Shown piece by piece: positions 15,836 through 64,000 of a stretch of DNA of 64,000 bases (positions are counted from its first letter, which is position 1; every line of letters starts with the position of its first letter). A model generated the notes under the pieces. It saw only the letters and a program-made list of their open reading frames with translations. It did not search any database and was not told the origin of the DNA. The stretch is from positions 1 to 64,000 of IMG/VR virus record IMGVR_UViG_3300011399_000001, one strand, 5' to 3'. This DNA is from a virus (Duplodnaviria; Heunggongvirae; Uroviricota; Caudoviricetes). A program made the position numbers and the translations under genes.

Positions 15836-15848
15836 CTAAATAAAGGAT

Positions 15849-16093: not shown

Positions 16094-16101
16094 TAAATTT
16101 G
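16094..16101 (+). promoter_or_regulatory. TAnnTTTG element (TAAATTTGTATTCA) 13 nt upstream of the 16115 start
   Basis: Matches the recurring TAnnTTTGTATT motif. Confidence 0.4.
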
Positions 16102-16114
16102 TATTCAATTACGT

Positions 16115-17915: not shown

Positions 17916-17938
17916 AAGGCTTTTTTAATTAACTACAT

Positions 17939-42253: not shown

Positions 42254-43125
42254 TTATGAGAACGATAGTTATAAGATTAAAGAAAGCTGGAAAAAGAACT
42301 GATGTATTCTCCATTTCTGATGGAATGGGGAATATATTAATTGATGAAGTTAGTAAACAGGAACTCATTCAAGGAGTCTCGTTGTCTATAGCAGATAATG
42401 TTTCTGCGCTTGTAGTATCTTCTACAGGACTAAATTGCTGTTCTCTCTCTATAACTATCCCTATTACAACAATTACAAAACAAGAGCTTGCTGATTGGGA
42501 ATTTCAATCTGTCAACACATCCTCTGTTTGGAGACATTTAACAGACCCTACTTTATATAATAACTTCTATGGATGTATCCATCCTTATGTTTTAGAATAT
42601 CCTTTTGCATATCAATATTATGATGAAATTGTACAAAATGTAAAAGACTATACAAAGGTATATAAATATCTCCCTTCAATACATGGAGTATTTGATGACA
42701 CTAGAAGGATAGAAACGGATGTAGACTATTTCAATAAGTCGATATTATATAACGATCAACAATCTTCAGGTATTCTTACATTAGTTAGCAAGCCTGTTAA
42801 CAATATGAAGGAATATATGAAATATCCTATATTCAATACAGATAATAAATCTATTACATTTACGAAAAGTGATAATTTCTATCAATATAACACTTTTTGG
42901 AATATAGTGAAGAACAAAACCACCCCTCTATTTGTTTCCAGTTGTCAATCAATGTCTATTGATAAAGAAGTAAATGACGAGAATATGGATTATTCTACAA
43001 GAAGTTTTAGAAAAGATACTATAAGAGCCAAGGATTTAAAAGTGAGACAGATTCTTGACAACAGAAGTGATATACATTTAGTTTCACAATTCATCATAGC
43101 ACCAGCACAAATTTCATACAAATAA
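42241..43125 (+). CDS. tail protein, unknown function (294 aa)
   Basis: ORF track. Confidence 0.5.
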   Translation: MYSLIMRTIVIRLKKAGKRTDVFSISDGMGNILIDEVSKQELIQGVSLSIADNVSALVVSSTGLNCCSLSITIPITTITKQELADWEFQSVNTSSVWRHLTDPTLYNNFYGCIHPYVLEYPFAYQYYDEIVQNVKDYTKVYKYLPSIHGVFDDTRRIETDVDYFNKSILYNDQQSSGILTLVSKPVNNMKEYMKYPIFNTDNKSITFTKSDNFYQYNTFWNIVKNKTTPLFVSSCQSMSIDKEVNDENMDYSTRSFRKDTIRAKDLKVRQILDNRSDIHLVSQFIIAPAQISYK

Positions 43126-46425: not shown

Positions 46426-47184
46426 ATGGCTTTTATATACAAAATAAGGAATTTAGTGAATAACAATCTTTATATAGGTAGTACAAGAAGACCTAAATAT
46501 AAGAGAAAATATGAACATTTTTCTAGGCTTAGAAACAATAAACATTATAATAATCATTTACAAAATGTATTTAATAAACACGGAGAGAGTAATTTTATAT
46601 TTGAAATATTAGAAAAAGTACCATTCTCAAAAGAAACAAATAATGAAGAAATCAACAAAGAATTAGTAAAAAGAGAATTTTATTTTGTAAAGTTATTAAA
46701 TCCAGAGTATAATATTAAAAAGGATATTGTTAGAGGACAAACTGGATACAAACATTCTGAGGAAACAAAAAAGAAAATTTCTGAGAGCAATTTAAAAAAT
46801 CATTTGGATAAACCTAAAAAAGAAAAGGTTAGAATAAGATTATCTTCAAGTGGTTGGAAACATACACCTGAATCTATTAATAAAATAAGAAATAGAAGTT
46901 TAAAAGAAGATAATAAAAAAAGAATTAGAGAAATTCAAAAAATAGCTTCTATAAAAAGAATAGGGACTCATCTTTCTTCAGATAGTAAAATAAAAATGAT
47001 AAAAAAGAAATTTGGAAAAATGAGAGAGATAATGATTTATAATAAAAAAGGAGAATTTGTAAATAAATGTAATTTTTCTTCAGAGGCAAGTGTTTTAACT
47101 GGAGTAAAACGATCTAATATTTCTAATAATTTGGCAGGAATATCTAAGTCTGCTGGAGATTACATATTTAAATATACTGACTAA
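46426..47184 (+). CDS. GIY-YIG homing endonuclease with NUMOD3-like repeats (252 aa)
   Basis: FIYKIRNLVNNNLYIGST...YEHF...N.H.N..LQ..F.KHG...F.F.ILE; three G(Y/W/T)(K/H)(H/L)S.E(T/S)..KI repeats. Confidence 0.7.
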   Translation: MAFIYKIRNLVNNNLYIGSTRRPKYKRKYEHFSRLRNNKHYNNHLQNVFNKHGESNFIFEILEKVPFSKETNNEEINKELVKREFYFVKLLNPEYNIKKDIVRGQTGYKHSEETKKKISESNLKNHLDKPKKEKVRIRLSSSGWKHTPESINKIRNRSLKEDNKKRIREIQKIASIKRIGTHLSSDSKIKMIKKKFGKMREIMIYNKKGEFVNKCNFSSEASVLTGVKRSNISNNLAGISKSAGDYIFKYTD

Positions 47185-49925
47185 TGGCGAGTTTTGTTGA
47201 CCATCTTCCTACATTTAAAGAATACGTACAACAGTTTCCTGTGGAGGCTGCTGTAAGAGTGGGTACATATAAACAGGGAAAATACGACGAGGGGATACAG
47301 AAAATTCAACAACATATTGATAATGTTGCAGGAATTGATGTTGTTAGGGATGTAGACAAACAATACCTTAATTCTAAATTAAACGAATTAAAGGGAGGGC
47401 TTAGGAAAGTGGCTGCTGGAGATTTCTCTAATTACCAGTTAGTGAATAATGTAGGAGGTATGATTTCGCAAGTGGCCAAAGACCCTTCTGTTGTGAATGC
47501 TGCTTCCTCTACAGCTTGGTACAGGAAACAAATAGAGAAGATGCAGAAGGATGTAGATGAAGGAAAGTCTAACCCTGCTAATATTGATTATTTCCAAAAA
47601 CATGCTCAAACATGGTTGAATTCTCCTAATGCAGGAGAAAAGTTTTCAGGACAATATATCCCTAATTTTGATGTTTTTAAGTTTGCTAAGGAAGCATTTG
47701 ATGCTGTAAAACCTGATGGATATTCTTTTGATCAATTATACATAACTGATCAAAATGGAGTACCAAAAACAGATGCACAGGGACGTCCTATAGCTTCTCC
47801 TATAATGAAGAGGCTTGAGAAGGAGGGGATATTTCCAGAGAAAGTGAGAGCCACTCTTAATCAAATATTCTCTGACCCTAGAGTAGACACTCAATTGTCT
47901 ATATCTGGAGAATATGCACTAAAGCAATATTCTCCCCAATTATTGTCTAATAGAATACTTTATCAAAAGAATAAAGTAGTGGGAGATTTACAAGATCAAT
48001 TGAATGCTCTTAATTTACAGAAGAATACAGGAAAAAATGTACAGGCTGATATAGACATTATACAACAACAGATTGAGAATACTAGGGTGAAATATGATGA
48101 TTTTAGCAGACTAGCTCTCTCTTCACCTGATGCTGTAAGAGCCTCCCTGTATAAAGATGATGTTAAAAGTAATTATACCTCTATGTTTGGTTGGACTAAA
48201 ACCAAAGAGCAATCTATGGAAAGTCCTCTTTGGAATGCTAATTTTAGACTAAATCAAGAGGCTAATAGAGTGGCAGAATTCAGAGAAAGAATGGATTTTG
48301 AGAAAGGGAAGGAAGCTTTTGACAGACAATATAAAATAACAGACCTTAATTTAAAAGCTCAAAAAGAATTAAACAAAGGGCAATTACCAGCTAATGCTAA
48401 ACAAGATGCACAATTATCAGATCCTAATATAGGGGTGATGCAATTTGATGCTTTATATGAGGGGGCTGCTAAAAACTACAATGACACTTCTAGTGATTTC
48501 ATTTATTCTATGGTGCTGAAAAATCCAGAAAACGATGCAGAATTACAAAAATATATAAGAGCAGGAAATTCCAAAGAAGCCTCTATAGAAATTTTAATGA
48601 AAAATAAAGTAAGACAGAAATATCTTGCACAAGGAATAGAACCTGATGAAGAGATAATAAACAATGAAGTAGCTGATTTAAAGACCAAGTGGGAACAAGA
48701 AGCTATAGTGGCTATTAATAAAATGACTCCTGTAGAAAAAGAAAAGAATTCTGATGTAGCTGATTCATACAACACATATAGTAGGGCTAAAAAGGAATTT
48801 TTGAAAGCTACAGAAATTAAGAATGAAGCAGAGAAAGTAATGGGTACGGAATTAGCAAATACACTTAATTCTGCTAATTTCAAAGCTTCTCCTATTAAAG
48901 TTAATATTGGAGGAAAAGCTATAACTCTCACACCAGAAGACCTTTACAATGCAGCATTGTATTTAAAAGGAAATGAGGCACCTATTGGTTTTATGAATAA
49001 TGAATCTTTGAGAGGACAAGCAAAAATAGCTGAAACAGCTTTAATTAATGCTGGAAAAGGAGAAATTCTTGATTATATAGAAGATCACGCAAACGAATTT
49101 CTTGATGGTCCTACAAATGCTGCTATTTCAAATATTTCAATAGGGGCTTCTATTGAAAATCCAAATTTGGTTAAGCAGTTTAAGAAATTATATAAAGACA
49201 TTGACAATACTACATTACAAGCTGCCATAAGGTCTAAAGCTGATGCTATTAAACAATTAGGTTTCACTGTTTCTCCCAATCTTAGAGTTGATATTGTAAC
49301 AGGGAATACAGAAGCTGACAGAAATACATTTACTAAAATATTAGCAACAGCAGGAAATTATACTTCAGTTAAACAAAATCTGTCTCCAGACTTTGATTAT
49401 TCTAAAATAAATGATGTTTTAAATAGTAAAGATAACATAAAACCTCTTGAACTTAAAACTAGAAAAAATGATGCTACAGGAGAAATCACTCCTGAACTCG
49501 TATTTTATGGAGATAATGGGAAAAGAGTGGCTGGTATGGTGATTAGTCCAGAAGAAGCATTAGCTATAGGTATAAATACAAACTCTTTATACGAATCTGC
49601 TGATATTAAAATCCTAAGAGATAGAATGAATGCTTCTCCTTTAGGTAGCACCTCTATAGGTGACCCTAAAGAAATTTTAACATATGTTGAGGGAGATGCT
49701 TGGTTTGAAAAACAAGACTTCCCTAATTTAACAGGAAGCAGGTATGATGTAAAGGCCAATCTTGTTAGAAAGAATGGACTGGTCTATCCTGTAATATATG
49801 TTACTGATGGAATAACAACACCTCTTCCAAGGACTTTACCTGGACAAAGAGATGTAGCTGATGCTGTAGACAAGCTTATGTCTGTAACACCACAATTTGT
49901 AAATTCAATATTAAACGAGAAATAA
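47184..49925 (+). CDS. large alpha-helical virion protein (913 aa)
   Basis: TAATG overlaps on both sides; no catalytic motif recognised. Confidence 0.55.
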   Translation: MASFVDHLPTFKEYVQQFPVEAAVRVGTYKQGKYDEGIQKIQQHIDNVAGIDVVRDVDKQYLNSKLNELKGGLRKVAAGDFSNYQLVNNVGGMISQVAKDPSVVNAASSTAWYRKQIEKMQKDVDEGKSNPANIDYFQKHAQTWLNSPNAGEKFSGQYIPNFDVFKFAKEAFDAVKPDGYSFDQLYITDQNGVPKTDAQGRPIASPIMKRLEKEGIFPEKVRATLNQIFSDPRVDTQLSISGEYALKQYSPQLLSNRILYQKNKVVGDLQDQLNALNLQKNTGKNVQADIDIIQQQIENTRVKYDDFSRLALSSPDAVRASLYKDDVKSNYTSMFGWTKTKEQSMESPLWNANFRLNQEANRVAEFRERMDFEKGKEAFDRQYKITDLNLKAQKELNKGQLPANAKQDAQLSDPNIGVMQFDALYEGAAKNYNDTSSDFIYSMVLKNPENDAELQKYIRAGNSKEASIEILMKNKVRQKYLAQGIEPDEEIINNEVADLKTKWEQEAIVAINKMTPVEKEKNSDVADSYNTYSRAKKEFLKATEIKNEAEKVMGTELANTLNSANFKASPIKVNIGGKAITLTPEDLYNAALYLKGNEAPIGFMNNESLRGQAKIAETALINAGKGEILDYIEDHANEFLDGPTNAAISNISIGASIENPNLVKQFKKLYKDIDNTTLQAAIRSKADAIKQLGFTVSPNLRVDIVTGNTEADRNTFTKILATAGNYTSVKQNLSPDFDYSKINDVLNSKDNIKPLELKTRKNDATGEITPELVFYGDNGKRVAGMVISPEEALAIGINTNSLYESADIKILRDRMNASPLGSTSIGDPKEILTYVEGDAWFEKQDFPNLTGSRYDVKANLVRKNGLVYPVIYVTDGITTPLPRTLPGQRDVADAVDKLMSVTPQFVNSILNEK

Positions 49926-52900
49926 TGCCTGATAGGGAGAAATTAGTAAATTTAGGGGGAGTGATGGAAGGTTTTCCAACACTTGTTCCTGAAGGATTTA
50001 ATGCTGAAGGTGACACAACAAAGGACATATCTGTAAACGATATGTTTAATTCTTTGGGAGCAGGTGGTTCCAAGGGTCGACCTTCTATTCCTATAAGTTC
50101 CTTTTATACAGGGAACAGACATATTTCTGCATTTCCTCTGACAGATGTAGAGGAGATGTCTGCACAGCAACAAAGTACATTTGATAAATGGGGAAATGCT
50201 CTTACAAAGATGGTGGGAACAGCAGGTACTACATTTATATCAGGTACTGGAGGTTTGATATATGGGGTGGGGGCTTCTGTAAGAGATGGAAGATTTGCCT
50301 CCTTATATGACAATGAAGTGACAAGAAACATGGACGAATTCTCTAAATATTTAGAGGATGAGCTTCCAAATTATTATACACATCAAGAGAAGAATGCTGA
50401 TTGGTATTCTCCTAATAACCTATTTACAGCTAATTTCTGGGCTGACAAAGTACTTAAAAACCTAGGGTTTTCAGCAGGAGCTTTAGCTGGTGGTGTTGCT
50501 TGGGGAACTCTTTTCAGAGGTATTGGTCTTACTAACCAATTAGTAAAAGCTGGTAGAACATTAGAGCTTATAGAGGCTACAGAGCAGGTGATGACTTCTG
50601 TACCAAAAGCACAGCAATTTGGAGCTCTACAGAGCACATTGAATTCATTGGCTCAAACCTATCTTAAAACCCCTACAGCAGCTATTTTAAAGAGTTCTGA
50701 CAGAGTATTAGCTTCTGTGATGGGAACATTTGGAGAAGCTTCATTAGAGGCCCTACACAACCTTAATGATTTTAGAGGTAAGCTTATAGAAGAATACAAA
50801 GCTAAATATGGAGTAGCTCCTGAAGGACAAGACCTTGCAGAAATCAATGATTATGCTGATAAAGCAGGTAATTTCACATGGGGAGCAAACACTTTATTAT
50901 TATCTGCCACCAACTATATCATGCTCCCTAAGATATTAGGAAGCTCTAGAAAGGCTGATAAAGCTCTTTTAAATGAAATAACACAGGATGCTACAGGAAA
51001 GTTTATTTCTCCAGCCAAGGGATTTTTAGCAAAGACCAGGGGGGCAGGTGCCTTATTGTTCTCTCCTACAGAAGCCTTTGAGGAAGGCTCACAATTCGCT
51101 ATACAAACAGGTACAAGAGAATATTTTGATAGAGCTTATAAAAACAAAGAGGACGTTTCAGAATTCTTCTCCAATGTCTCTAATGTATTAGGTACTATTT
51201 CTGATGAAGGAATTGCAACCACCCTGTCTACAAAAGAGGGGATGGAGAACATTCTTATAGGAGGTATATCTGGAGGTTTACAACAAGCTAGAGGAACTGT
51301 AATACAACAAGGAATAACAGGAACTACAGGTCAAAGACAGAAAAACACTGATTTGGCGGTTAGTGCTTTAAACAAATCTTCTTTAGGAGTATCATTACAG
51401 GATGGGGCTAAATATGTAGCTAGAGGTATAAATTCTCAAAAGCTTAGACAAGAAGCTATTGCTGATAATGATGTTCTTTCAGAGAAGGATTATGAACTTG
51501 ATTTTACAATGTCTTATATTCTCCCAAGAGTAAAATATGGAAAAATTGATGGAATATTTGAAGAACTTGAACGTTATGAAAATCAGGCAGTAACAGATCA
51601 AGGGTTTTTAGAATTAAAGAATGAAGGAATAATTGCTCCTCTTGAAACAAAAGAGCAATTTGCTAATAGACTGAATACTATCAAGAATATAGCTAAAGAT
51701 GCTGATACCTTGTATTCTCAAATAAATGACAAATATTCTAATTATGTAGATAAGAATGGGGATAAGATATTTACAGATGATATTGTAGACCGAATGGTTT
51801 ATGCTGCTGCCAAAATATCAGACTATGATGTAAGAATACCTCTTACACAACAATCTCTTGTTTTAGCTGGAATAGATGTACAGAGTATTTTACAGGGAAT
51901 TATAGAAAATGACTCTCCTGCTAAGAAACCTTTAAAGAAAGCTCAACAAGATATTGACAAGCTTAATTCCATTGATGAAGATCAATTAAAAGAGGATTTA
52001 AGAGATGTTATAGAGCTCTCATTAAGAAGGAAGAAGTTTGTTGATGAATATAACAATATTAAACGCTCTCCTCTTTCTTATAAGGAAGCTCCTGTAGCTC
52101 CTGCTGAAACTTTAACTTTCACTAATGTACAAGAAGAGGTAGAGCCCTTACAATTAGATAGGGAATATATTTCTCCTAAAAGAGAAGCTACAGTTAAAAA
52201 GTCTCCAAATGAAGAGGAGTGGGAAGTTAATTCTCCTATTTCTGCTGCTCAATTTTTCCCTACTCCTGAAGAAGCAAATATAAGAAAAGCTGAATTAGAT
52301 GAGGAACTAGCTGATATTCAGGCAGTTAAAATCATTGCTCTAAACCCTGATGGAACAGTTGCAGTGGAAGATGTAAATGGCGATAGGTATAATATTCCTA
52401 CATCACATTTAACAGGCTATGAAAAAACTCTTACCCAACAAGAGAAACTTCAAAAATACAAACAATCTTTAGAGGAGGAACAAAATGACATTACCAAAAC
52501 TTCAGGCACTGTAGGTACAAATTCTCTTCCTGAAGATATTGGTGCTTTAGAAACAGAGGATAAAAAGAAACCAACTTCTGTATTATTTACTTCCACTACT
52601 TCAGCTTCAGAGGACGGTGCACAACTATTAAAACCTCATATTATTAGGACTAATACATTCCTTAATAATGCTAAAAACTTTCCTAATTTTGCTAACTTAA
52701 GAACAATTCTGGTTACTCCTAACCAAGAAGATTCTCTTGGACTAAAAGGGCTAACAGACCTTTCATTAGAAGGAAGTGGTGTAGAAAAATCAAAATACAC
52801 AGACTTTAATGAAGGACTTATAGCTGCTGTATATGTGGAACAAGAGAGGGATAATATATATTTTGTAGATCAGGAAGGAAAGAGAATTAATAAAATAAAT

Positions 52901-55900
52901 GAATCTACACCTCTTGATAAAATAATATTCTCTACAATGCCCACTACACATTTAGTATGGGCAGATGGAAAGACAGCCAGATATAGAACTGGTGAAAGAG
53001 ATGAAGCTATACAACAAGCTAAAGGATGGGAAGCTAAAAGAAAACAACTTTTTAATGCTGCTCCAGGGAGCTATGAAATATATGAATTTTCTATTTCTAG
53101 AGGAATTCCTTCTATTTCAGACCCTAATGAAAGGTATGATGTAGCTGCCTCTCTTATCCCTGAAGATAAGATTTCTACAGAACAAGGTCTTATTATAATC
53201 CCCACAACTGGTACTATTACTTTTGGAGAGGAATTGTTTAAATTTCCTAATGGTAGACCTGTGCTCCATTATAGAGATACATTACAATTCATTGACAATC
53301 ATTCTTTTACAAAGAATCAGGCAAAAAGTATATTTGAAGTGATTAAAGTTCTTGCTGAAGATATTAAAGGACAACAAACTAGAGGAGAGAAGAAACTCAA
53401 ATTAAATAGAAAATACACCACATTCTTGCAAAAAGTGTTATGGTGGAAACAAACTCCTGATATTAAAAAGAATCAAATATTTATAGACCCTATAACAGCA
53501 GAACTATTCTTTGGAGGAGATAGGTATGACCTTACAAATATTGCTGATAGAGAAGAAGTTCTTGTAAACAAATTACAAGAGACATATTCTGCTGTAAATA
53601 ATATTACATTAACACAATCTTTTGTAGAGCCTTTTACAGAATACTATTTTGAAAATGAATTAAAGACAAGAGATTGGACTAATTATCAAACCTATCTTCT
53701 ATCGTCTAAATTACCAGATGGGACTAAAAGAGCAACAAATGAGGTTCCTCTTACTACCTCTGTAAACCCTCCTTCAGATGCTGTTCCTTATAACTATAAG
53801 CAGAAGTATGCTATACTTAGAGGTATGGATTTTCCTGAAATCCCTAAACCAGCTCCTAAACAAGAAGTAGAAATATCCTCTGACAAAATAGGAGAGTATG
53901 TTGTAGACGGAATAACAGAAAACACATATAAATTAACAAGTGGACCTGTACAATTTACTGCTATAGTAGAGGGGGAAGGTGTGTCTGTATCTGTAATAGC
54001 CAATGAGACAGTAGATAAGATTGTAGGAAATGACAAAACAATGAACACTATTGTTTCTTTCCTTAAATCTGCTGATAAATTTGATGCTACAACATCTGAC
54101 AAAGAACAAGCTTTATTATTCGTTGGTTTGAAGATTTCTAATGATTTACAGAAGCTAAAGAATGCAGCTCCTAAAACAGAAAAATCTCTTTCTGCATTAG
54201 AGGCCAAGAAAGCAGATATAGAAAAAAGAAGACAAACAACTTCTACTACTTTCAATCTTGAAAGAGAGCGTAAAGCAGGAAAGGACATATATTATGAATA
54301 TTATATAACTCCTGAAGGTCGTACTGAAGCAGTTTATGGACAAAACGAAAAAGTTATAAGAGCGTTAATTAACGCTAAATATGATGCTGAATTATCTGCT
54401 CTTCAATCTCCTACTAAAGTAGAACTTGTAGGGGAGCAACTTGATGATATAGAGGCAGAAGTTAATAGAAGAATCAAGTCTTTTGGTATAACAACACCTC
54501 CTGCTAATACAGAATATAGAAAAGCAGAACAAGGACTTGAAGGAATTGCTCGTATTTCTCCTGCTGAAATAGAACTGTTTAAAGAATGGCATGCTAAAAA
54601 CACTCCTAATATCTCTTATGAAGTAACGGAGAATATTCTTATTACACATGATAATGAAAAAGCGTGGGGAGCATTTGAAAATAACGTAGCCAAATTCTAT
54701 AAATCAGCTTCCAGAGGTACTGAATACCATGAAACATTCGAAGGAATCTGGGGGTCTTTCTTAACTGCTAATGAACAACAATTCATTCTTCAAGATGAAA
54801 AAGCTAAACCAGGAAGTTTTGTAGATAGACAATCAGGTAAGAAAATTAAATATGATGAGGCTACAGACCTTCAAATTAAAGAGAGAATTGCAGATGATTT
54901 TGCTGATTTCAGACTTGGTAAGCTTCCAGCTAAATCATTGACTGATAGAGTATTACGTTTCTTCAGAGCTATAATTAATTTCTTTAGAGAATTTGTTTCC
55001 AAGCCTTCTTTGAAAAAGGAGCTTTTCAAAGCTATTGATACAGGTGAATTCAGAGATTTTACAATCCCTGAAAATCTATATTTAGAACCTGCTTATAAGA
55101 GAGTAGAGGGATTAACAGAACAACAAACAAATGAGTTTATACAGGATATTTCTGCAAGATTCTTTCAATATGTATTTGGAACTAATAGCTCTTTATATTC
55201 TCCTGAACTGTTATCTTCTCCTGAAATATTTAATAATATAAAACAACAATATCTTTCTAAAGACAAAAATAATCCCGATAGTGTTAGTAGAATAGATATT
55301 TTAGGAGAAACTGCATGGAATCAATTAGTTGTAAGAACAAAGGATTTTCTACGTACTTTCAAAATTGAATTCGATGAAGACAATATACTTACAATTAATG
55401 TTGAAGGACAGGATAACAAATTGTATGCTCCTGAGCCATTTGCTACTAATTGGAAAAAGTCTTCTCCTTTCCCTGTAAAACTTCTACTAGGGACTTTAAC
55501 AGAAACTGCTCCAGATAACCAGGAGAGTTCTAATAGTATGTCTCTTCCTGCACAGAAATCATCTTCTGTAAATGGATATAAGCTTTTAAATTTCTCAAGA
55601 GCTTTTGCTACTGTATTAGATAAACTGGCCAACACTACCAAAATAACAAGTATGGTAGATAAACTTATAGAATTGGCTAAATTTGACAGCAATTATGTAC
55701 GTTTGTTTACACGTTTAAAAGGAGATAGAAATAGCTTGGAGATAGATTTCTCTAAATTTCAACCAGAAGATTGGAGACTGTTTATTAATTTCTATCAAAC
55801 ATTCACTAAGCAAAAGCCTGATGCATTCATCCAATATATCAATAATGGAGAGGTATATAGTTCTTCTGCCAATTTAGCAACGGCTGTTAGAACAGAACAA

Positions 55901-58900
55901 CAGAGCTGGACAGAAAATATGAAAGGTCTTTCTAAGAAAAAAGACTCTTTAATAACATATAACAAAAGCACTAAAACTTATCAGGTGGGGGATACTACCA
56001 AGCTGCCTATAAAAACCCCCCAGAATCAAACTGCTTTCTTATCTAAAATAGGAATTGAATTTCCTATGGAGGTGTATAATAAGCTGAAAACTTATCAGAA
56101 GAAGAAATTCTCTGATGCTGTTTCTGCCATATATGCCTATTTTGGTAAGGAAAAAGACCTTATGTCTGTTACAGGGAAAACATTAAAAATTAATGGACAA
56201 TTAAATACATTAGCAGAACTCCTGGTAATAGTAACCAACCCTAACCAGGAATTGTCATATTTTGGTTTAGATGGACGTAGAAGACAAAATTTTGCTGATA
56301 ATAATGCTGCCTCTATATTAGAGAATGATTTCAATTCTTCTGAAACACTGGAACAACTGTTAGAGAATAGACCTGAATTACAGGACATTTTCTCACAAAA
56401 TAGCCTTGTTTTAAAAAGAGGAGGTTTGTTTTTCAATGCTGAGGGGAAGAGAGTTAAGAAGATAAAAGTTGGCTATATCCAAGGAACTAACAATATTGAT
56501 GGAGGTAGAGAAACTGTAACTACCAATTTGTCATTAGGAGATAGATATGTACAGGAACTCAATCAAAATGTTAATGGGAATTATTACATTCTTGTACCTG
56601 CTGATAGCTCTACAGAATGGATGATGGACCTTGGAAATCAAGTTCCTTTTATAGACATAGAGAGTAATGATTGGTCTAAAATATACACAGCTTTCAACGG
56701 TTATTTGAAAGATGACATTGCTTTGGCTAAACAAAATAGAACATATTTAAGAAATACTGCTCCTAGAGCTAAAGAATTGAGATTCTTTAAAGACATTCTT
56801 CCACAAGAGATATTGTCTAAAGTAAACAAGCTCATTAAAGATGATGTTAGTAATGATGAAATTGATATATTTTTAGCTGAAAACGCTAATGATACTAATT
56901 CTGCCGTTAAGCAATATATTGAAAATGACAGAAACAATACAATTGAAGTATTGAAAGAAAACACCCAAATTGTACAAAATGAAGATGAAACTTTTTCTTT
57001 TAAGAATTTAGATGATAATTTTACGAAGAGAGAAAACCTTAAAAAATACTCCCTTTCTCAAAAAGAGGTGGAAGATATTATTACCTTTACTAATGCTAAT
57101 TATATAATCAACAATGTCGAACTACATAAAATATTATTTGGTGATCCTTATCAATTTGCTATCAAAAATAATCAATTGGATGAAACTAAGCGTATTAAAT
57201 CCTTTCTTTCTCCAAGGAGAACCACTTTTGATAGCCCTGAATTTAACACTTTCCTTAATCAGCAATATAATAAAGCTGGTGAAATTCAACTTTCCCCTAC
57301 AGACCCAGGCTACCATTTACACAAATCGCATGTAAATACTGTCACTCTACAAGATGTAGTGGTAGCTGGTAGTGTTTCAAATATTAAGGACCTTCCAGAA
57401 GACATAAAAGAAGCCTACCTCAAAACTAATGAGGCAGATGCATTCTCTCTTATTATGGACACTACCTTTAGAGAGGTTAAGCTTAAAAATGGACAATGGA
57501 GTGAAGAAGCTGAAGATTGGCACCAATGGCAAATGGCTTATACAAGGCAGAATATGCCAGGGTATGAATATTCAAATAAAGCCCTCGAAAAACATGATGT
57601 AGCCTTATTGTCTACTCCAGAGCCTGAATATGTATCTGATGTTCTTAAACCTATTGTATCAGGAAATAAGCACAATGCTACGTCTATTAACCTTGCTTTG
57701 GACAAGATGTCTCAGATGCCTGTATATTATTCAGCAGTGGAGGGTACAACTCTTGAGAAATTCTACATTAAAATGTGGAAGGAAAAGAAGGGATATGCTG
57801 TATTTGAAAGTGGAAGAAAAGTAGGGGCTGAAGAATTAGAGCCTTTATATAAAGAAGATGGAACATTCAACGATCAGCCATTTAACAATAATATTCAAAT
57901 CTCTTGGAAGTCCTATGGAATTCAAGTAGAGAATGCATACGAAGGACCTAAGCAACAAACTAGAGGAAGTCAATTAACAAAGCTTTCTAGTTTAGATTTG
58001 GCTGATAATGGAGTGTTTACAAGTGAAGCTGCTCAAAAAGAATACCAAAGAAACAGAAAACTATTAGACGAAATCCACAAGAACGGATATAGAAATCTGT
58101 TAAGTTCTCTAGGAATAGAAGACTTAGATGGAAGTTTTAGACTAGTAGATAATGTATCTGTAGCTCAAACTCTTCAAAGAGAAATGTTTAGAAGAGAGGC
58201 TTCAGAGAATATGAAAGATACACTAGAATTAGATGAAAATGGAGAATTTAGAATCCCATTTGAAGCTTCTTCTGCTTATATACAGATAAAAGACATCATT
58301 TATTCAATGGTAGATAAGGCTATTGTAGCCCCTAAAATGTCTGGTGGAGCTCATGTGCAAGTACCTGTTACTTTATGGGAGAGTTCTAAAGAGGGAAGAA
58401 AGGTTGTGGAAATTAATGGGAAAAAAGTATTTACAGACTCCACTCTAAAGTTCTATACTAAGGAAGACCCTTATTGTGAAATCCTCCTACCTGCTTGGTT
58501 TAAGGATAAAATCAACCTTAAGAGATTTAAAAAGGACGAAGATATTTTAAACTACCTTAACAGAACTCAGGAGGGGAAAAACATCCTTAAAGGAATAGGT
58601 TTCCGTATTCCTACGCAATCTATGTCTTCAATAGAGGTGTTTAGAGTGAAGGGTTTCCTTCCCTCTTATATGGGAAATACGGTGGTTGTACCTTCAGAAA
58701 TCACTACAAAAGCAGGTTCTGACTTTGACATAGATAAATTAAATATGTACCTTAAGGCTGTTTATACAGACCATAATGGGGACATTAAGCTTGTTAAATA
58801 TAAAGGAAGTGAGGAGGAGACTAAGGAATTCTATGGTAAGATATTTGACAGAAAACTTGAAAAGAAGAGGATCACAAAAGCAGAAATTTTAGAAGCTATT

Positions 58901-61309
58901 CAAATTGTACACTATGGACTAGAGGATAATAAAGGACTTATTGACAAATATGCTGACATCCTTAATACAATTGTACAGGAATCTGAAAATTTAGCTGATA
59001 AAGAAGAGGAGCTGTTACAAAGAATTGGACAATTAGAAGATGACCAAATTCAAGGTTCTTTCAGAGAAGACTTTGTAAACGAAATGTATAAGCGTTCTTT
59101 AGAGAACGAATATTACGATAGTTTAGAGAAATTACTAACTCTTCCTGAAAACTTTGAAAGACTTATTTCTCCTGTAGATGATGCTGGTTTAAAGAAGCTT
59201 TCTACAACATTAGATAATTTAAAGGGTGAGGATGAAACCTCTATAAAAAATCGTATCCTTAATAGGGATTATATGACCTCTTTAAGACATGCTTTTGTGT
59301 TAGGAAAGAAATGGGTAGGGATAGCTGCTGTAAACATTACAGGACACTCTTTAACACAGAAATCTGAAGTGTTTATAGACCCTGACAAATTTGATTTAAT
59401 CCCTGCTTTTGACAGGAAATTCATAGCAGACGGGGAAGTAGTATTACCACATAATACAACAGCAGATGGTAAGATTTCTATTTCTGGTAAATTTGTAAAA
59501 GGGACGACTAAATACATTTCTGATAGACTTTCTGGTTATGCAACATCTTTCGTAGACGTAGCTAAAGACCCTTATATTCTAAAGCTTATAAAGAGTGATT
59601 TAGCAATTGGTACATTTATGTTCCTTGAAAGAATAGGGGTGGGGGAGACTACAGCCTTATTCATGAATCAGCCTATTATTGATGAATACCTACAATATTT
59701 AGACAGCATCAACGCTAGAGGTTTGTATAACAAATCCAACCTTGATTATATCAAGAACAAATTTTCCTCAACATCTCCTTTAATTAGAGATGTCAAAATC
59801 AATGTTTTTGATTTTAAGGATAATATCAAAAAATATGCTGAAAACAAGAAATTAACAGAAGCTGAAAATGCTGTACAATTAAGAGTATTGGCAGAGTTCT
59901 TGAAGTATGCCAAAATGGCACAATATAGCTTCAAACTTACACAGGCTTCAAATTACGATACTACTAGATTTAGAAGTGCTGATACCTTATTTAAGAAACA
60001 AGTTAGAACTGAACAAGCTAGACGTTCAAATATATTCTCTTCTGTAGACAAAATTCTTGACAATTCCTTTATAGGAGAACAGAGTTATATTCTTGGATTT
60101 GCTTCTGAAGCTGTAGGAGAAATCCTTAAATTAGACAGATATGATGTAAGAAGCAAAGCCCTCAATCCTATTCTGGAGCCATATGCTGAGAATGAATTCC
60201 TTAGCAATGACAAATATGATAGAATTGCTAATAAAGTGATTACTTCATTTATCGACTTTTTAGTACAAACTAAAGGACTTAATAGTGAAATAAAGGCTCT
60301 ATTAGTAGATACAGCTACATCTGTAGCTAATTCTCTATCTGTAGCTAAACAGCAATTCCCTCAATTAAGAATATTGAGAGACCTGGAGATTGTTAGTAGC
60401 GATAGACCTGAGGGAACAAAATCTCTTAAATTGAAAGCCAATATAAAAGAGGCTTATGATGAGAATTTGTATACAGAAATGATGAGAGAATTGAGAGATT
60501 TTCCTTCAGCATCTGTTCTATACAAGGACATTGTTAAACTATCCCTATTACAAGGAACATATAATTCTCCTATTTCTATTGGTAATATAATACCATTAGA
60601 GGATAGGGCTGCTATTATAGCTCCTATTATACAAACATTAAATGCAGATAGCGAATTCAATGTTTTTGCACAGGGAGCTTTTCAAAGAAATAACTGGAAA
60701 GACTCAGATGTATTTAGAAAAATATCCCCTAAATTCTTTACTAATGATGAGCAGTTTTTAGGAGAGGACGCTTATGGAAATGAGATTTATCAATATGTTT
60801 CTCCAGCCTTTGCTCCACTTCCTACATTGGGGATAACGGCTTCCTCTAGAACAATACTTGCTCTTAATGACAAATACCATTCTTTTGATATAGCAAATGA
60901 TTATTTATTAGTTCCTAGGGTGGTGGAAGATAGGAAAACAGGTGAAAGAGTGGACATGGAAACTGGTAAAACAGTAACAAATGCCATGTTTATGCAAAGA
61001 AAGACCAAAGGAGACCTCTCTCTTAAGGATGTATATGGGTATAAGAAAGTGAGACATTCTGATGGAAGTCCTGTGCTAACATTTGATAAAGAAGGGAATT
61101 CTGTGTATATTTACAAACTCATAAATTTATGGGGAGATGGAATTTATGCTTCAGAATACTATTTTACAAACAAGCCTTCTGTATTAAATAATGGAACTGT
61201 GAAAATAACACAGGAGATTCCTGATGCTGATATTATTAATTTCTTTGCCCCTGAAATAGAACAAAGTATTACACAAGATTCAAACGAACAAATACCACCC
61301 TGTAGCTAA
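49925..61309 (+). CDS. giant virion protein (3794 aa) containing a beta-prime-like DPBB RNA polymerase catalytic domain; candidate virion-packaged RNA polymerase of crAss-like phages
   Basis: GFRIPTQSMSSIEVFRVKG...SEITTKAGSDFDIDKLNMY parallels beta-prime [21 protein letters not shown]...AAYNADFDGDQMAVHVP, including the DxDxD metal triad at nt 58721-58735; N-terminal Gly-zipper/hydrophobic segment. Confidence 0.65.
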   Translation: MPDREKLVNLGGVMEGFPTLVPEGFNAEGDTTKDISVNDMFNSLGAGGSKGRPSIPISSFYTGNRHISAFPLTDVEEMSAQQQSTFDKWGNALTKMVGTAGTTFISGTGGLIYGVGASVRDGRFASLYDNEVTRNMDEFSKYLEDELPNYYTHQEKNADWYSPNNLFTANFWADKVLKNLGFSAGALAGGVAWGTLFRGIGLTNQLVKAGRTLELIEATEQVMTSVPKAQQFGALQSTLNSLAQTYLKTPTAAILKSSDRVLASVMGTFGEASLEALHNLNDFRGKLIEEYKAKYGVAPEGQDLAEINDYADKAGNFTWGANTLLLSATNYIMLPKILGSSRKADKALLNEITQDATGKFISPAKGFLAKTRGAGALLFSPTEAFEEGSQFAIQTGTREYFDRAYKNKEDVSEFFSNVSNVLGTISDEGIATTLSTKEGMENILIGGISGGLQQARGTVIQQGITGTTGQRQKNTDLAVSALNKSSLGVSLQDGAKYVARGINSQKLRQEAIADNDVLSEKDYELDFTMSYILPRVKYGKIDGIFEELERYENQAVTDQGFLELKNEGIIAPLETKEQFANRLNTIKNIAKDADTLYSQINDKYSNYVDKNGDKIFTDDIVDRMVYAAAKISDYDVRIPLTQQSLVLAGIDVQSILQGIIENDSPAKKPLKKAQQDIDKLNSIDEDQLKEDLRDVIELSLRRKKFVDEYNNIKRSPLSYKEAPVAPAETLTFTNVQEEVEPLQLDREYISPKREATVKKSPNEEEWEVNSPISAAQFFPTPEEANIRKAELDEELADIQAVKIIALNPDGTVAVEDVNGDRYNIPTSHLTGYEKTLTQQEKLQKYKQSLEEEQNDITKTSGTVGTNSLPEDIGALETEDKKKPTSVLFTSTTSASEDGAQLLKPHIIRTNTFLNNAKNFPNFANLRTILVTPNQEDSLGLKGLTDLSLEGSGVEKSKYTDFNEGLIAAVYVEQERDNIYFVDQEGKRINKINESTPLDKIIFSTMPTTHLVWADGKTARYRTGERDEAIQQAKGWEAKRKQLFNAAPGSYEIYEFSISRGIPSISDPNERYDVAASLIPEDKISTEQGLIIIPTTGTITFGEELFKFPNGRPVLHYRDTLQFIDNHSFTKNQAKSIFEVIKVLAEDIKGQQTRGEKKLKLNRKYTTFLQKVLWWKQTPDIKKNQIFIDPITAELFFGGDRYDLTNIADREEVLVNKLQETYSAVNNITLTQSFVEPFTEYYFENELKTRDWTNYQTYLLSSKLPDGTKRATNEVPLTTSVNPPSDAVPYNYKQKYAILRGMDFPEIPKPAPKQEVEISSDKIGEYVVDGITENTYKLTSGPVQFTAIVEGEGVSVSVIANETVDKIVGNDKTMNTIVSFLKSADKFDATTSDKEQALLFVGLKISNDLQKLKNAAPKTEKSLSALEAKKADIEKRRQTTSTTFNLERERKAGKDIYYEYYITPEGRTEAVYGQNEKVIRALINAKYDAELSALQSPTKVELVGEQLDDIEAEVNRRIKSFGITTPPANTEYRKAEQGLEGIARISPAEIELFKEWHAKNTPNISYEVTENILITHDNEKAWGAFENNVAKFYKSASRGTEYHETFEGIWGSFLTANEQQFILQDEKAKPGSFVDRQSGKKIKYDEATDLQIKERIADDFADFRLGKLPAKSLTDRVLRFFRAIINFFREFVSKPSLKKELFKAIDTGEFRDFTIPENLYLEPAYKRVEGLTEQQTNEFIQDISARFFQYVFGTNSSLYSPELLSSPEIFNNIKQQYLSKDKNNPDSVSRIDILGETAWNQLVVRTKDFLRTFKIEFDEDNILTINVEGQDNKLYAPEPFATNWKKSSPFPVKLLLGTLTETAPDNQESSNSMSLPAQKSSSVNGYKLLNFSRAFATVLDKLANTTKITSMVDKLIELAKFDSNYVRLFTRLKGDRNSLEIDFSKFQPEDWRLFINFYQTFTKQKPDAFIQYINNGEVYSSSANLATAVRTEQQSWTENMKGLSKKKDSLITYNKSTKTYQVGDTTKLPIKTPQNQTAFLSKIGIEFPMEVYNKLKTYQKKKFSDAVSAIYAYFGKEKDLMSVTGKTLKINGQLNTLAELLVIVTNPNQELSYFGLDGRRRQNFADNNAASILENDFNSSETLEQLLENRPELQDIFSQNSLVLKRGGLFFNAEGKRVKKIKVGYIQGTNNIDGGRETVTTNLSLGDRYVQELNQNVNGNYYILVPADSSTEWMMDLGNQVPFIDIESNDWSKIYTAFNGYLKDDIALAKQNRTYLRNTAPRAKELRFFKDILPQEILSKVNKLIKDDVSNDEIDIFLAENANDTNSAVKQYIENDRNNTIEVLKENTQIVQNEDETFSFKNLDDNFTKRENLKKYSLSQKEVEDIITFTNANYIINNVELHKILFGDPYQFAIKNNQLDETKRIKSFLSPRRTTFDSPEFNTFLNQQYNKAGEIQLSPTDPGYHLHKSHVNTVTLQDVVVAGSVSNIKDLPEDIKEAYLKTNEADAFSLIMDTTFREVKLKNGQWSEEAEDWHQWQMAYTRQNMPGYEYSNKALEKHDVALLSTPEPEYVSDVLKPIVSGNKHNATSINLALDKMSQMPVYYSAVEGTTLEKFYIKMWKEKKGYAVFESGRKVGAEELEPLYKEDGTFNDQPFNNNIQISWKSYGIQVENAYEGPKQQTRGSQLTKLSSLDLADNGVFTSEAAQKEYQRNRKLLDEIHKNGYRNLLSSLGIEDLDGSFRLVDNVSVAQTLQREMFRREASENMKDTLELDENGEFRIPFEASSAYIQIKDIIYSMVDKAIVAPKMSGGAHVQVPVTLWESSKEGRKVVEINGKKVFTDSTLKFYTKEDPYCEILLPAWFKDKINLKRFKKDEDILNYLNRTQEGKNILKGIGFRIPTQSMSSIEVFRVKGFLPSYMGNTVVVPSEITTKAGSDFDIDKLNMYLKAVYTDHNGDIKLVKYKGSEEETKEFYGKIFDRKLEKKRITKAEILEAIQIVHYGLEDNKGLIDKYADILNTIVQESENLADKEEELLQRIGQLEDDQIQGSFREDFVNEMYKRSLENEYYDSLEKLLTLPENFERLISPVDDAGLKKLSTTLDNLKGEDETSIKNRILNRDYMTSLRHAFVLGKKWVGIAAVNITGHSLTQKSEVFIDPDKFDLIPAFDRKFIADGEVVLPHNTTADGKISISGKFVKGTTKYISDRLSGYATSFVDVAKDPYILKLIKSDLAIGTFMFLERIGVGETTALFMNQPIIDEYLQYLDSINARGLYNKSNLDYIKNKFSSTSPLIRDVKINVFDFKDNIKKYAENKKLTEAENAVQLRVLAEFLKYAKMAQYSFKLTQASNYDTTRFRSADTLFKKQVRTEQARRSNIFSSVDKILDNSFIGEQSYILGFASEAVGEILKLDRYDVRSKALNPILEPYAENEFLSNDKYDRIANKVITSFIDFLVQTKGLNSEIKALLVDTATSVANSLSVAKQQFPQLRILRDLEIVSSDRPEGTKSLKLKANIKEAYDENLYTEMMRELRDFPSASVLYKDIVKLSLLQGTYNSPISIGNIIPLEDRAAIIAPIIQTLNADSEFNVFAQGAFQRNNWKDSDVFRKISPKFFTNDEQFLGEDAYGNEIYQYVSPAFAPLPTLGITASSRTILALNDKYHSFDIANDYLLVPRVVEDRKTGERVDMETGKTVTNAMFMQRKTKGDLSLKDVYGYKKVRHSDGSPVLTFDKEGNSVYIYKLINLWGDGIYASEYYFTNKPSVLNNGTVKITQEIPDADIINFFAPEIEQSITQDSNEQIPPCS

Positions 61310-64000
61310 TGGCCTGTACTATAGAATATATTAGAAAATCACAACTATCTGAGACTGAGAAACTTAGATTAGAAGAAGAACATGTTTCCATCTTCAAACA
61401 AGCTAAAGCTTCTAAGGCTTTTAGAGAAGTTGATAATAAACTGCAAGCTGTAAAGCTTAAATATGCAGATGCCACCTCTTTTGTAGGAGAAATCAACAAA
61501 CAAAAAGGGGCTAAAGTTGTTGTATTAAATTCTATAGGAAATGGAAATGCCATTTTGTCAGTTAACGTTCTTCCTTTAGCCACAGAGAAACAAGAGGAAA
61601 TATTCTTACAAACAGACACCTCTTTCTATGGAAGAAGAGCTCCTGCTAATGTTGTAAAACTTTCTAAAGACCTCCTTACAAAAATAGGGGTGGAATATGA
61701 GAAAGTAAAGGATATTTATGTAAATGGTGTAAAAACAGGAGCTAATGGGGTGGCTAATATTACACAAGCATTAGTACAAGTTATAGAGGGGAGAGAAGCT
61801 GAAGCTCTTCCTGAAGAAGCTATGCACTTTACTGTAGAGCTTTTGGAGCAAAAAAACCCTATTCTATTTAACAAGCTTTTAAGGGAAATCAACAACTACT
61901 CCATATATAAGGAACTATTGGCTGATTATTCCAATGACCCTTTATATCAAACCAAGGATGGAAAACCTGATATTAGAAAGTTGAAGAAAGAGGCTATCGC
62001 TAAACAGCTTGTAGAAACAATAATTAACAAGTCAGAGAATAGCAAAGATAATGTTGGTTTAATAGCCAGGATACAAGAACTGTGGACTGAAATCCTTGAA
62101 TATTTAAAGAACCTTTTCATCTCTTCAGGCTTTGATGAAGCTGCCATGAAGGTGTTATCTGGAGAAACTATTGGTACTATTAATGACCTTAGGAATTCAG
62201 AGGGGGTATTTTTACAACAAAATACACAAGCTTCTTTATACAACAAATTGACACAAGTGGCCTCTACAATAGAAAAGAGGGGGGAAGAGGGGTATTTTAT
62301 AGATGGTAAGAAAGTATTGGAAAGAGTTAGTGACTTGGTTTATAGTTGGTATGATAGAAGATTTAAAGAAAAGAAATTACTAGAAAGTGACTTTGATATT
62401 GCTGTAAATGACTTAAAAGCTGAAAAAGGAACAAAAGGTCATAAGGATATAGAACATGCATTCACATTATTTGTAGATATAAATGGAGATGTCAGAGAAA
62501 CTCCTTTGGAGGATTCCTGGGTGTCATTATTGAATCCCAAAGACAATTCCATGTATACCCTTCTTAAGAATAATCTAAAAGAAAGAATTGATTCTTTTCC
62601 TAAAGGAACTAAGTTCCTATCAGAAATTACAGTTTATGATCAAAAGAGACAACTTGCAGGAACAATAGATTTTCTGGCAATTACTCCTGAAGGAAAAGTT
62701 AGTGTTTTGGATTGGAAGTTCATGGACCTCAATACTACTAAATATCAAGATGTTCCTTGGTTTAAAGTAGATGCTTGGAATCAGCAAATGGAACAATATA
62801 AACTTATTCTTGAAAAGGTTTATAATGTGAAATCTCAGGACTTTCAACAAACTAGGATGATTCCGATTAAAGCTTTCTATTCTCCAGTTAATAGGAAGTT
62901 ACAGCAACTACCTGTATTACAAAGCATTCTAATAGGGGCTGTTGATGTTAAAAATATTACAGAGGATTACTTGTTACCTGTAGGACTAGAAGGAGAGAAA
63001 ACTGGTAATAGAAAAATTGATGCTTTATTAGAGAAATTAAATGCTGTATACAAGAAATTTTCAGACAAGAAAGTATTGCCCTCTGAAAAACTATCTAAAG
63101 CAGAACAATTAAACAGCTTATTTACAGCTATTAGACAACTTCAAATTAAAGGAAATCTTAAACCGTTATTGTATCAAGCTAAAGTACTCAATAAACAAAT
63201 TGAAAATACGATAAAAAAATTCAATGATCAATGGAAAGGTAGAAATCCTATCTCTATTGATCAGAAAGAAATAAGTGATTTTTATGAAGAAATAGAGACA
63301 GCTCAAAATGCCATTATACATTATACAACCCTTGATACAGACCTTAAATTCTTGTTTTCAGGAGAACTGTCTCAAGAAGATAAAGTTTTAAGAGAAGAAT
63401 TAAGAGATGTTGTGGATAATGCCAGAGATTTACAAAGTGATATTTCTGAAATAGCAGGTGAATTTACTGATGATTTTGTAAAAGGAAGTGAAAAAATTGA
63501 AGGTAGTATTTTGTCTCCAGAAAAAATCATAAAAGGTATAACAAAGTGGTTTTCTTCTACGGCCACTCTACAACTCAAGTCTGTCGAAACTCTGTATAAG
63601 AAAGCTAATAGAGCGTTTACACATGCCTCTATGGACACTTTAGACGAGACTAAAAAACTTGAAGCTCTTAAAAAATCATATGATGTTTGGGCTACTTCTA
63701 AGGGGTTAAATACTAATACATATTTTGATGCTATTAAGAAAAAATCAAATGAACTTATTGATGAATTTAAACCTGAATTCTATACAGAATTAAAGGACAA
63801 AATCAACAATAATGATATTGCTTGGGTGAAGGAAAATGTTGATGTAAAAGCTTATAAAGAACATTTAGAAAAACAACTTCTTAAAGAGGTACAAAGAATT
63901 GATGACAAAGCTAGGGTGGGAACACAGGAGGAGATTGCTGGACATATAAGAAGAGAAATAGCTGAAGCCAAAAGATTATATAATGTCTCACAAATTGATA
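61309..64000 (+). CDS. large virion protein, truncated by the window end (more than 897 aa), with a PD-(D/E)xK-like motif
   Basis: ATG overlaps the stop of the giant gene (TAATG); open to the window end in frame 1; GTIDFLAITPEGKVSVLDWKF resembles nuclease motifs II/III. Confidence 0.5.
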   Translation, partial: MACTIEYIRKSQLSETEKLRLEEEHVSIFKQAKASKAFREVDNKLQAVKLKYADATSFVGEINKQKGAKVVVLNSIGNGNAILSVNVLPLATEKQEEIFLQTDTSFYGRRAPANVVKLSKDLLTKIGVEYEKVKDIYVNGVKTGANGVANITQALVQVIEGREAEALPEEAMHFTVELLEQKNPILFNKLLREINNYSIYKELLADYSNDPLYQTKDGKPDIRKLKKEAIAKQLVETIINKSENSKDNVGLIARIQELWTEILEYLKNLFISSGFDEAAMKVLSGETIGTINDLRNSEGVFLQQNTQASLYNKLTQVASTIEKRGEEGYFIDGKKVLERVSDLVYSWYDRRFKEKKLLESDFDIAVNDLKAEKGTKGHKDIEHAFTLFVDINGDVRETPLEDSWVSLLNPKDNSMYTLLKNNLKERIDSFPKGTKFLSEITVYDQKRQLAGTIDFLAITPEGKVSVLDWKFMDLNTTKYQDVPWFKVDAWNQQMEQYKLILEKVYNVKSQDFQQTRMIPIKAFYSPVNRKLQQLPVLQSILIGAVDVKNITEDYLLPVGLEGEKTGNRKIDALLEKLNAVYKKFSDKKVLPSEKLSKAEQLNSLFTAIRQLQIKGNLKPLLYQAKVLNKQIENTIKKFNDQWKGRNPISIDQKEISDFYEEIETAQNAIIHYTTLDTDLKFLFSGELSQEDKVLREELRDVVDNARDLQSDISEIAGEFTDDFVKGSEKIEGSILSPEKIIKGITKWFSSTATLQLKSVETLYKKANRAFTHASMDTLDETKKLEALKKSYDVWATSKGLNTNTYFDAIKKKSNELIDEFKPEFYTELKDKINNNDIAWVKENVDVKAYKEHLEKQLLKEVQRIDDKARVGTQEEIAGHIRREIAEAKRLYNVSQID

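Follow-up and report, generated by a model that had tools for sequence, protein, structure and literature searches.

Gp66 of phage phi14:2 is an RNA polymerase (RNAP) packaged in the virion; its activity requires Mg and the DFDID motif, and the early transcription that it carries out resists rifampicin (bioRxiv 10.1101/2020.03.07.982082; Crassvirales review). Orthologues of gp66 and of its neighbors gp65 and gp67 are fused in some phages (bioRxiv 10.1101/2020.03.07.982082). RNAP genes encoding up to ∼6000 amino acids (aa) are given as a hallmark in the Crassvirales review, and the transcription block has been described as a set of giant multidomain proteins with varying boundaries (Yutin et al. 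2021). In phage crAss001, gp47, gp49, and gp50 were found in virions and interpreted as cargo that is ejected partly unfolded (Bayfield et al. 2023, PMC10172136). A related locus is described here in a 64,000-nucleotide (nt) stretch of viral DNA, hereafter the window (IMG/VR record IMGVR_UViG_3300011399_000001, Caudoviricetes, positions 1 to 64,000). One of its genes encodes a 3794-aa protein, hereafter the giant, which, judged from its sequence, very probably joins a cargo or ejection protein to a complete single-chain, two-barrel, DNA-dependent RNAP, presumed to be carried in the virion and injected.

The giant gene (nt 49925..61309, plus strand, as are all features below unless stated otherwise) fuses a gp47/gp67-type cargo protein in frame to a gp66/gp50-type two-barrel RNAP. 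It is a single open reading frame (ORF) with an ATG start and no internal stops in the ORF listing. An initial annotation, made from the letters of the window, had pointed to this uninterrupted giant frame and to a catalytic segment in its C-terminal third, and both were borne out: DFDID lies at aa 2933-2937 (nt 58721-58735), 77% along the protein. The stretch at nt 58601-58756 translates as FRIPTQSMSSIEVFRVKGFLPSYMGNTVVVPSEITTKAGSDFDIDKLNMYLK. The peptide quoted in that annotation is present, although its coordinates are off by up to 3 nt (the leading Gly is codon 58598-58600). The annotation was also right that the Gly of DxDGD is replaced to give DxDxD, since DFDID is what is read at aa 2933-2937.

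Phage phi14:2 offers the closest comparison. Its gp66 (PDB 6VR4) shares with the giant the DFDID motif, a RIP(T/N)Q strand, two double-psi beta-barrels (DPBBs) in one chain, a connector, a bridge helix, a trigger loop, a C-terminal Cys, and a location between gp67-type and gp65-type genes. The gene order in phi14:2 is g067 (1797 aa), g066 (2180 aa), and g065 (1421 aa). The window has the same order at the end of its structural block, with a fused [gp47/67 + gp66/50] gene followed by a gp49/65-type gene. The difference is that gp66 is a separate 2180-aa protein, whereas the giant carries its equivalent behind a ∼1700-aa gp67/gp47-type protein. In crAss001, gp47 corresponds to the N-terminal module plus the junction domain of the giant, gp50 to the RNAP, and gp49 to the ORF downstream of the giant; unlike in the window, these are three separate genes, and gp47 is on the opposite strand.

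The Polymerase Half

A phmmer search of the giant against all PDB sequences returned phi14:2 gp66 (6VR4_A) as the sole match (E=1.5e-19, well outside what chance would give), with giant residues 2563-3347 aligned to gp66 residues 1014-1762. The segment singled out in the initial annotation matches IGYRIPNQGQSSNDPLQIVGILPEAMGDTIVAYTEIPTKTGSDFDIDKMYVML of gp66 residue for residue, including gp66 1361-DFDID-1365. It falls on the catalytic strand of gp66, in agreement with its reading as a beta-prime-like barrel. A family profile of three sequences found 6VR4 at E=2.6e-36, and a whole-family profile run against PDB gave no match to any second domain. A profile alignment (hhalign) covers much more of the chain, equating giant 1834-3348 with gp66 220-1749 (probability 100%, E=4.3e-45, 1328 columns). 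RNAP homology thus begins at about aa 1834 of the giant, which is gp66 residue 220, and the matched region is the RNAP body (Module IV, nt 55424..59968, aa 1834-3348). It is followed by a C-terminal domain that ends ...IPPCS (Module V, nt 59969..61306, aa 3349-3794). A Pfam scan of the giant gave no RNA_pol_Rpb1 match, and none of 50,697 phage records matched in a megablast search.

The landmarks of gp66 include a connector (residues 1095-1238), a bridge helix (1529-1559), and a trigger loop (1598-1636) (bioRxiv 10.1101/2020.03.07.982082). The connector, bridge helix, trigger loop, and first-barrel blocks all have conserved counterparts in the giant. A search for a second, beta-like DPBB, proposed in the initial annotation, located one at aa ∼2575-2690 (nt 57647..57994), marked by the blocks KPIVSG, SGRKVG, GIQVE, and TRGSQLTK. 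The beta-prime-like DPBB spans aa ∼2805-2945 (nt 58337..58759) and contains RIPTQ (2894-2898) and the catalytic D2933-F-D-I-D2937. By hhalign, the bridge-helix equivalent, YMTSLRHAFVLGKKWVGIAAVNITGHS, lies at aa ∼3116-3142 (nt 59270..59350) and matches gp66 1529-1559, while the trigger-loop equivalent, ISDRLSGYATSFVDVAKDPYI..., lies at aa ∼3198-3236 (nt 59516..59632) and matches gp66 1598-1636. Two DPBB domains, a connector, a bridge helix, and a trigger loop are therefore found in one chain.

Structure prediction agrees with these alignments. An AlphaFold2 model of aa 2300-3400, built with 38 homologues, has a mean predicted local distance difference test score (pLDDT) of 82.5 and a predicted template modeling score of 0.78. 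A Foldseek search of PDB with this model retrieved 6VR4 at E=1e-34 with a template modeling score of 0.64, and the weak tail of matches consists almost entirely of beta'/Rpb1 chains and phiKZ/AR9 RNAP subunits. The initial annotation had staked its reading beforehand on a DPBB fold around DFDID and on the acidic triad in homologues. The fold is predicted, with 6VR4 as the top structural match, and DxDxD is present in ∼93 homologous segments. Among ∼106 segment matches in 99 homologues, 86 read DFDID, 4 read DFDVD, and 3 have another DxDxD, with RIP[TNH]Q preceding the triad. At least 114 of 150 representative clusters from a broader scan (below) also carry DxDxD. These results support the polymerase assignment of this C-terminal unit (unit 2).

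The Cargo Half

The catalytic barrel had been described as fused behind ∼2900 residues of other domains. That description does not stand, because ∼1100 of those residues already belong to the polymerase, of which they form the N-terminal half with the first barrel. The separate non-polymerase unit (unit 1) comprises only aa ∼68-1714 and is of gp47/gp67 type. It begins with a conserved N-terminal module like that of crAss001 gp47 and phi14:2 gp67, predicted to be all-alpha (Module I, nt 50126..52144, aa ∼68-740). In tblastn and blastp comparisons, giant aa 72-739 match crAss001 gp47 and aa 72-523 match phi14:2 gp67; hhalign pairs giant 74-453 with gp67 65-399 (probability 99.7%). A gp47-family profile aligns with giant 68-1714 as a whole (hhalign probability 99.9%, E=1.3e-35). 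Stand-alone virion proteins of phi17:2, phi4:1, and Lbo-JY46, which are non-crAss phages, also contain Module I. The variable, indel-rich middle of the giant has no recognizable domain (Module II, nt 52145..54565, aa ∼741-1547) and no Pfam, PHROG, or PDB match; it is colinear with the gp47-family profile inside aa 68-1714.

A Kyte-Doolittle scan detects two Gly-rich, moderately hydrophobic segments within Module I (nt 50213..50530; aa 97-119 and 176-202), and their positions are kept in gp67, gp47, and two metagenomic contigs (L002 and L003). The best 19-residue means of the N-terminal segments are 0.97-1.14 in the giant, 1.47/1.72 in gp67, and 1.57 in gp47. As for the Gly-zipper or membrane-like N-terminus of the initial annotation, the Gly-rich segments exist, but their hydrophobicity of ∼1.0-1.1 is under the usual threshold for a transmembrane helix.

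The Junction Domain

A zincin-like domain (Module III, nt 54566..55066, aa ∼1548-1714) lies at the junction of the two units. It is homologous to crAss001 gp47 aa 2097-2294, the C-terminal HExxH domain of that protein (local profile E=1.4e-11, hhalign probability 96.7%). An invariant block at aa ∼1580-1610 reads AWG.FEN.VAKFYKSA..GT.YHE.FEGIW. In the giant, the motif H1602-E-T-F-E1606 (nt 54728-54742) stands in place of canonical HExxH; the domain therefore lacks the signature motif of a zincin metalloprotease, and the Pfam scan gave no peptidase match.

This substitution is the majority form in metagenomes. Among the 150 best representatives of the junction-domain scan (below), 121 could be scored, with 104 carrying HExxE and 17 carrying HExxH. 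HExxE is also found in metagenomic contigs L002, L003, and L004. HExxH is kept in the homologous domains of crAss001 gp47 (HEAFH), crassvirus cr108_1 (HESFH), and the 17 representatives. A simple rule, with HExxE marking fused forms and HExxH marking split forms, is ruled out, as fused cr108_1 and fused representative P0120 keep HExxH.

The ORF downstream of the giant has a related feature. This gp49 (crAss001)/gp65 (phi14:2)-type ORF (nt 61309..64000), the third member of the transcription/cargo block, encodes at least 897 aa and runs past the end of the window, and its ATG overlaps the TAA of the giant by 1 nt. Its motif is EEAMH (aa ∼175-179), crAss001 gp49 likewise has EExxH, and phi14:2 gp65 has HEIMH. 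Both zincin-like domains of the transcription/cargo block are therefore seen with one His replaced by Glu. No mention of HExxE or EExxH zincin variants was found in the accessible literature.

The Terminal Cysteine

The giant has just two Cys, one of which is Cys3793 (nt 61301-61303). A Cys in this position is nearly invariant: of the 121 long representatives, 115 have their last Cys at most 6 residues from the C-terminus, and 48 of these contain no other Cys (sequences covered: the giant, L002, L003, L005-L009, and representatives P0117-P0266). A terminal Cys is also found in gp66, gp67, gp47, IAS gp058, the Lbo-JY46 1552-aa protein, and phi17:2 gp039, and is absent from gp65/gp49-type proteins. 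No mention of a C-terminal Cys in ejection proteins was found in the accessible literature. A dedicated device, in which this residue is a thiol tether or a signal for packaging, ordered ejection, or activation, is a speculative and rather unlikely reading. It could anchor the chain to the portal or capsid through a disulfide or a metal, or it could serve as a cysteine-switch ligand for the HExxE/EExxH sites. The cysteine-switch version is weakened because gp67, the Lbo-JY46 1552-aa protein, and phi17:2 gp039 have the terminal Cys without HExx[HE].

Proposed Mechanism and Alternative Readings

Homology with phi14:2 and crAss001 is the basis on which packaging, ejection, and activity are assigned to the giant. 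By this analogy, it would be made late and kept, loosely folded, in the cargo zone of the capsid. It would then be extruded through the portal and tail, before or with the DNA, and refold in the cytoplasm to transcribe early genes independently of the host polymerase; such early transcription would be expected to be rifampicin-resistant. Cys accounts for 2 of the 3794 residues of the giant and is absent from the neighboring putative cargo ORFs (1073 and 913 aa), in comparison with 1.3-3.5% in tail-fiber-like ORFs. The near-absence of Cys fits translocation across the envelope in an unfolded state.

Several observations weigh against the assignment as an injected cargo-polymerase fusion. The giant is only 21-25% identical to the proteins from which packaging, ejection, and activity are deduced. 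The giant shows no significant alignment to residues 1-219 of gp66, a stretch that holds the greater part of the cleft-blocking element (196-233). Scans of the whole giant returned no Pfam match at E up to 1 and no PHROGs match at E up to 0.01. The AlphaFold2 model of Module I has a pLDDT of 62, and Foldseek against PDB gave nothing better than E=0.7 for it. With the N-terminal segments below the standard transmembrane threshold, a membrane role is conjecture, and absence of the second zincin His makes a protease or processing function uncertain.

The alternative with the most in its favor concerns not the identity of the two halves but their fate. The giant may be a polyprotein, in which case cleavage near aa ∼1715-1830 would separate a gp47-like ejection protein from a gp66-like polymerase that works only once freed. 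The cut might be made by the zincin-like domain of the giant itself or by the gp65/gp49-like neighbor. Cleavage of fused forms was proposed by the gp66 authors (bioRxiv 10.1101/2020.03.07.982082), phi14:2, crAss001, and IAS virus encode the halves separately, the zincin-like domain is located exactly at the junction, and conservation dips and indels occur at aa ∼1750-1800. However, 104 of the 121 scorable representatives have HExxE rather than the canonical catalytic HExxH, no conserved cleavage site was identified, and published accounts treat the virion RNAP (vRNAP) of phage N4, a 3500-aa protein with a membrane N-terminal domain, an HExxH domain, and an RNAP between them, as a single chain. 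Moreover, the separate halves each end in Cys, whereas the fusion has no junction Cys and one terminal Cys, which suggests that it behaves as one chain. Processing is thus possible but doubtful; judged from sequence, the giant may work uncleaved, as N4 vRNAP does, or may be cut near the zincin-like junction.

The other alternatives dispute the polymerase, the gene, or the timing. Extreme divergence from cellular RNAPs, the replaced Gly of DFDGD, and a gp66 crystal in which the motif has a conformation unable to bind Mg could all be expected of a catalytically dead relic that is merely a structural or ejection component. Yet gp66 with the same DFDID is active and every Asp-to-Ala mutant is dead. 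Across dozens of homologues 33-61% identical to the giant, there is little or no variation in the three Asp, RIPTQ, the bridge helix, the trigger loop, or the Lys/Gln blocks of the first barrel, a signature of purifying selection on catalysis that makes a relic highly improbable. A lost stop codon or a chimera of two adjacent genes has negligible probability. Such errors do occur in metagenomic contigs, contig L004 shows the reverse case of a gene split by frameshifts, and database gene calls of the giant RNAP family reach only 1576 aa, but the fusion is uninterrupted in independent contigs L002 and L003 and in 121 representative clusters (50% identity), and homology is colinear across the junction. 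A further possibility is that the enzyme is synthesized early, stays out of the virion, and serves middle or late transcription; some phages with two-barrel RNAPs (phiKZ, AR9, and P23-45) also have non-virion enzymes, which are among the weaker fold matches. This is very unlikely here, given that the gene lies at the far end of the rightward structural/cargo block and shares the orientation of the TerL, portal, and major capsid protein (MCP) genes, that the polymerase is fused to a homologue of the virion-detected proteins gp67 and gp47, and that Cys depletion is common to the giant and its putative cargo neighbors. A virion-carried polymerase joined to its cargo partner remains the preferred reading.

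Recurrence of the Fusion

The fused layout recurs in contigs L002, L003, and L004, in cr108_1, and in 121 long representatives. The last come from an exhaustive HMMER search in which the junction domain (aa 1500-1830) was run against 1.84 billion representatives, with 711 clusters passing a cut-off of E 1e-3. Of the best 150 of these, 121 are 3400-5650 aa long (median 4260) with the junction domain at ∼1500-2200, and at least 114 have GSD-DFD[IVF]D downstream of it. Intact fused ORFs are present in the metagenomic contigs L002 (4025 aa, 1424-13501) and L003 (3899 aa, 2156-13855).

The initial annotation had suggested a new domain architecture. That suggestion was not upheld, as fused gp65/66/67 orthologues already appear in the gp66 paper and both cr108_1 and 121 of the 150 best clusters are built alike. 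The fusion of gp47/67 to gp66/50 is already known as a form, and this phage is a divergent further example of it.

Two data sets give a misleading impression of split genes. When queried with aa 2500-3400, a large protein database holds the giant RNAP family only as fragments of at most 1576 aa, so its length statistics are misleading. These fragments are C-terminal pieces of the 3899-4025-aa ORFs of L002 and L003, the upstream parts of which have no called gene. Gene splitting, as read from these database proteins, is therefore ruled out by the full ORFs on the contigs. In L004 (ENA ERZ25039459 contig_103812), the gene appears as three (1895+829+1286 aa), with breaks at ∼7265 and 9850-9990 and others in 13855-18092, such that the giant and its downstream partner seem split 3+3. 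This division was rejected as a guide to module boundaries. By tblastn and three-frame translation, homology continues directly in shifted frames, and the breaks are most likely assembly indel errors rather than real boundaries.

Genome Context

The genes for TerL, portal, and MCP lie upstream of the giant in the same orientation. TerL is 40.5% identical to that of the unclassified Leptolyngbya phage Lbo-JY46, 30.6% to those of Cellulophaga phages phi17:2/phi4:1, and ∼24.5% to those of crassviruses. MCP matches only Lbo-JY46 (26%) and the Flavobacterium FpV4 group (Fipvunavirus). According to their records and NCBI taxonomy, Lbo-JY46, phi17:2 (Lightbulbvirus), and FpV4 (Fipvunavirus) are not placed in Crassvirales. 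The initial annotation took the giant to define the element as a crAss-like phage, which is right for the crAss-type transcription block, but the annotated phages closest in TerL and MCP are not assigned to Crassvirales. The phage is crAss-like in a broad sense only.

Lbo-JY46 and phi17:2 have stand-alone gp67-type proteins, and a gp66-type RNAP was not found in the regions examined. The presence of the former without the latter indicates that the gp47/67-type unit is an independent ejection-protein module. Set against Lbo-JY46 and phi17:2, the structural genes at window positions 18419-49925 are nearest to those of the cyanophage Lbo-JY46; apart from TerL and MCP, a 1580-aa tail protein pairs with a 1654-aa Lbo-JY46 protein (30%) and the 913-aa ORF with an 845-aa one. 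Matches in Global Ocean Sampling and Tara data suggest a marine origin. In the Lbo-JY46 region examined, a 2748-aa protein with two HExxH motifs follows the gp67-like gene, in the place of a two-barrel RNAP. Modular exchange of the transcription block is suggested.

Other genes in the window fill out this picture. The Cys-free 1073-aa ORF (nt 43125-46346) shows a short similarity (53% across 52 aa, E=4e-8) to a part of C1 (gp45), a cargo protein of crAss001, that adjoins the portal-binding domain of C1. A 252-aa ORF with GIY-YIG and NUMOD3 domains (nt 46426-47184) probably encodes a free-standing homing endonuclease; it is inserted shortly before the giant and has a putative cargo gene on either side. 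The structural block also includes a gene for an SbcD-like DNA repair exonuclease (phrog_704, nt 32164-33381). A dense array of 22 tRNA genes (nt 13580-15836), 21 detected by ARAGORN and one by Rfam at 15413-15485, occupies the divergent region that separates a leftward block of small genes from the rightward structural block, and it accounts for a local rise in GC. A separate tRNA-Met gene is on the minus strand (nt 1012-1085).

The value of these results is mainly in annotation, and current understanding is not overturned. The window can be annotated with confidence as part of a crAss-like phage of marine type, in which an injected two-barrel RNAP probably carries out early transcription. 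It adds a clean gp47-gp66 fusion, with no intron or frameshift, from a lineage with capsid genes nearer to those of cyanophage Lbo-JY46 and the Cellulophaga Lightbulbvirus than to those of gut crassviruses. The gp47/67-type protein occurs both together with the polymerase and on its own, which can help to reconstruct the assembly history of the crAss transcription block. The terminal Cys and the HExxE/EExxH variants bear on how proteins of ∼400 kDa are packaged, ejected, and activated.

Relationship to Other Known Systems

Crassvirus cr108_1 (NC_055878, Steigviridae) shares the fused layout, with a gp47-gp50 fusion of ∼3765 aa (2967+798 aa). A group I intron (RF00028, 80 bits, 319 nt, 14324-14642) splits its RNAP gene precisely within the DxDxD codons (...KAGSD then (Y)DIDKMY), and the exons are annotated as two separate hypothetical proteins. 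The window gene differs in being intron-free and in having HETFE where cr108_1 has HESFH.

Relatives of the polymerase half outside this family are distant. The barrel pattern of cellular beta'/beta, R-x-P-T-x ... DFDxD, occurs in the giant with comparable spacing, and there are weak structural matches to beta'/Rpb1 and beta/RPA135. In the giant, however, the Gly of NADFDGD is Ile, both barrels are in one chain, and no other subunit-specific domains are recognizable. The giant is thus not a cellular-type beta' subunit, and its Foldseek matches to cellular chains are weak and local, with E values of 0.04 or worse. Neurospora QDE-1, plant RDR2, the tape-measure-fused vRNAP gp96 of Thermus phage P23-45, and P74 gp62 resemble it only at the level of fold (8-14% identity), and their fusion partners and biology are different.

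A functional parallel is the N4 (Schitoviridae) vRNAP, gp50, which at ∼3500 aa combines in one giant ejected chain a probable membrane-interacting N-terminal domain, an early RNAP, and a zincin-motif domain (PMC13434306). It is thought to cross the tail unfolded, like beads on a string (PMC13434306). In contrast to the giant, the N4 enzyme is a T7-like single-subunit polymerase, with the HExxH domain placed after it. Sequence comparison detected no similarity between the two proteins, and their relationship is one of analogy rather than family membership.

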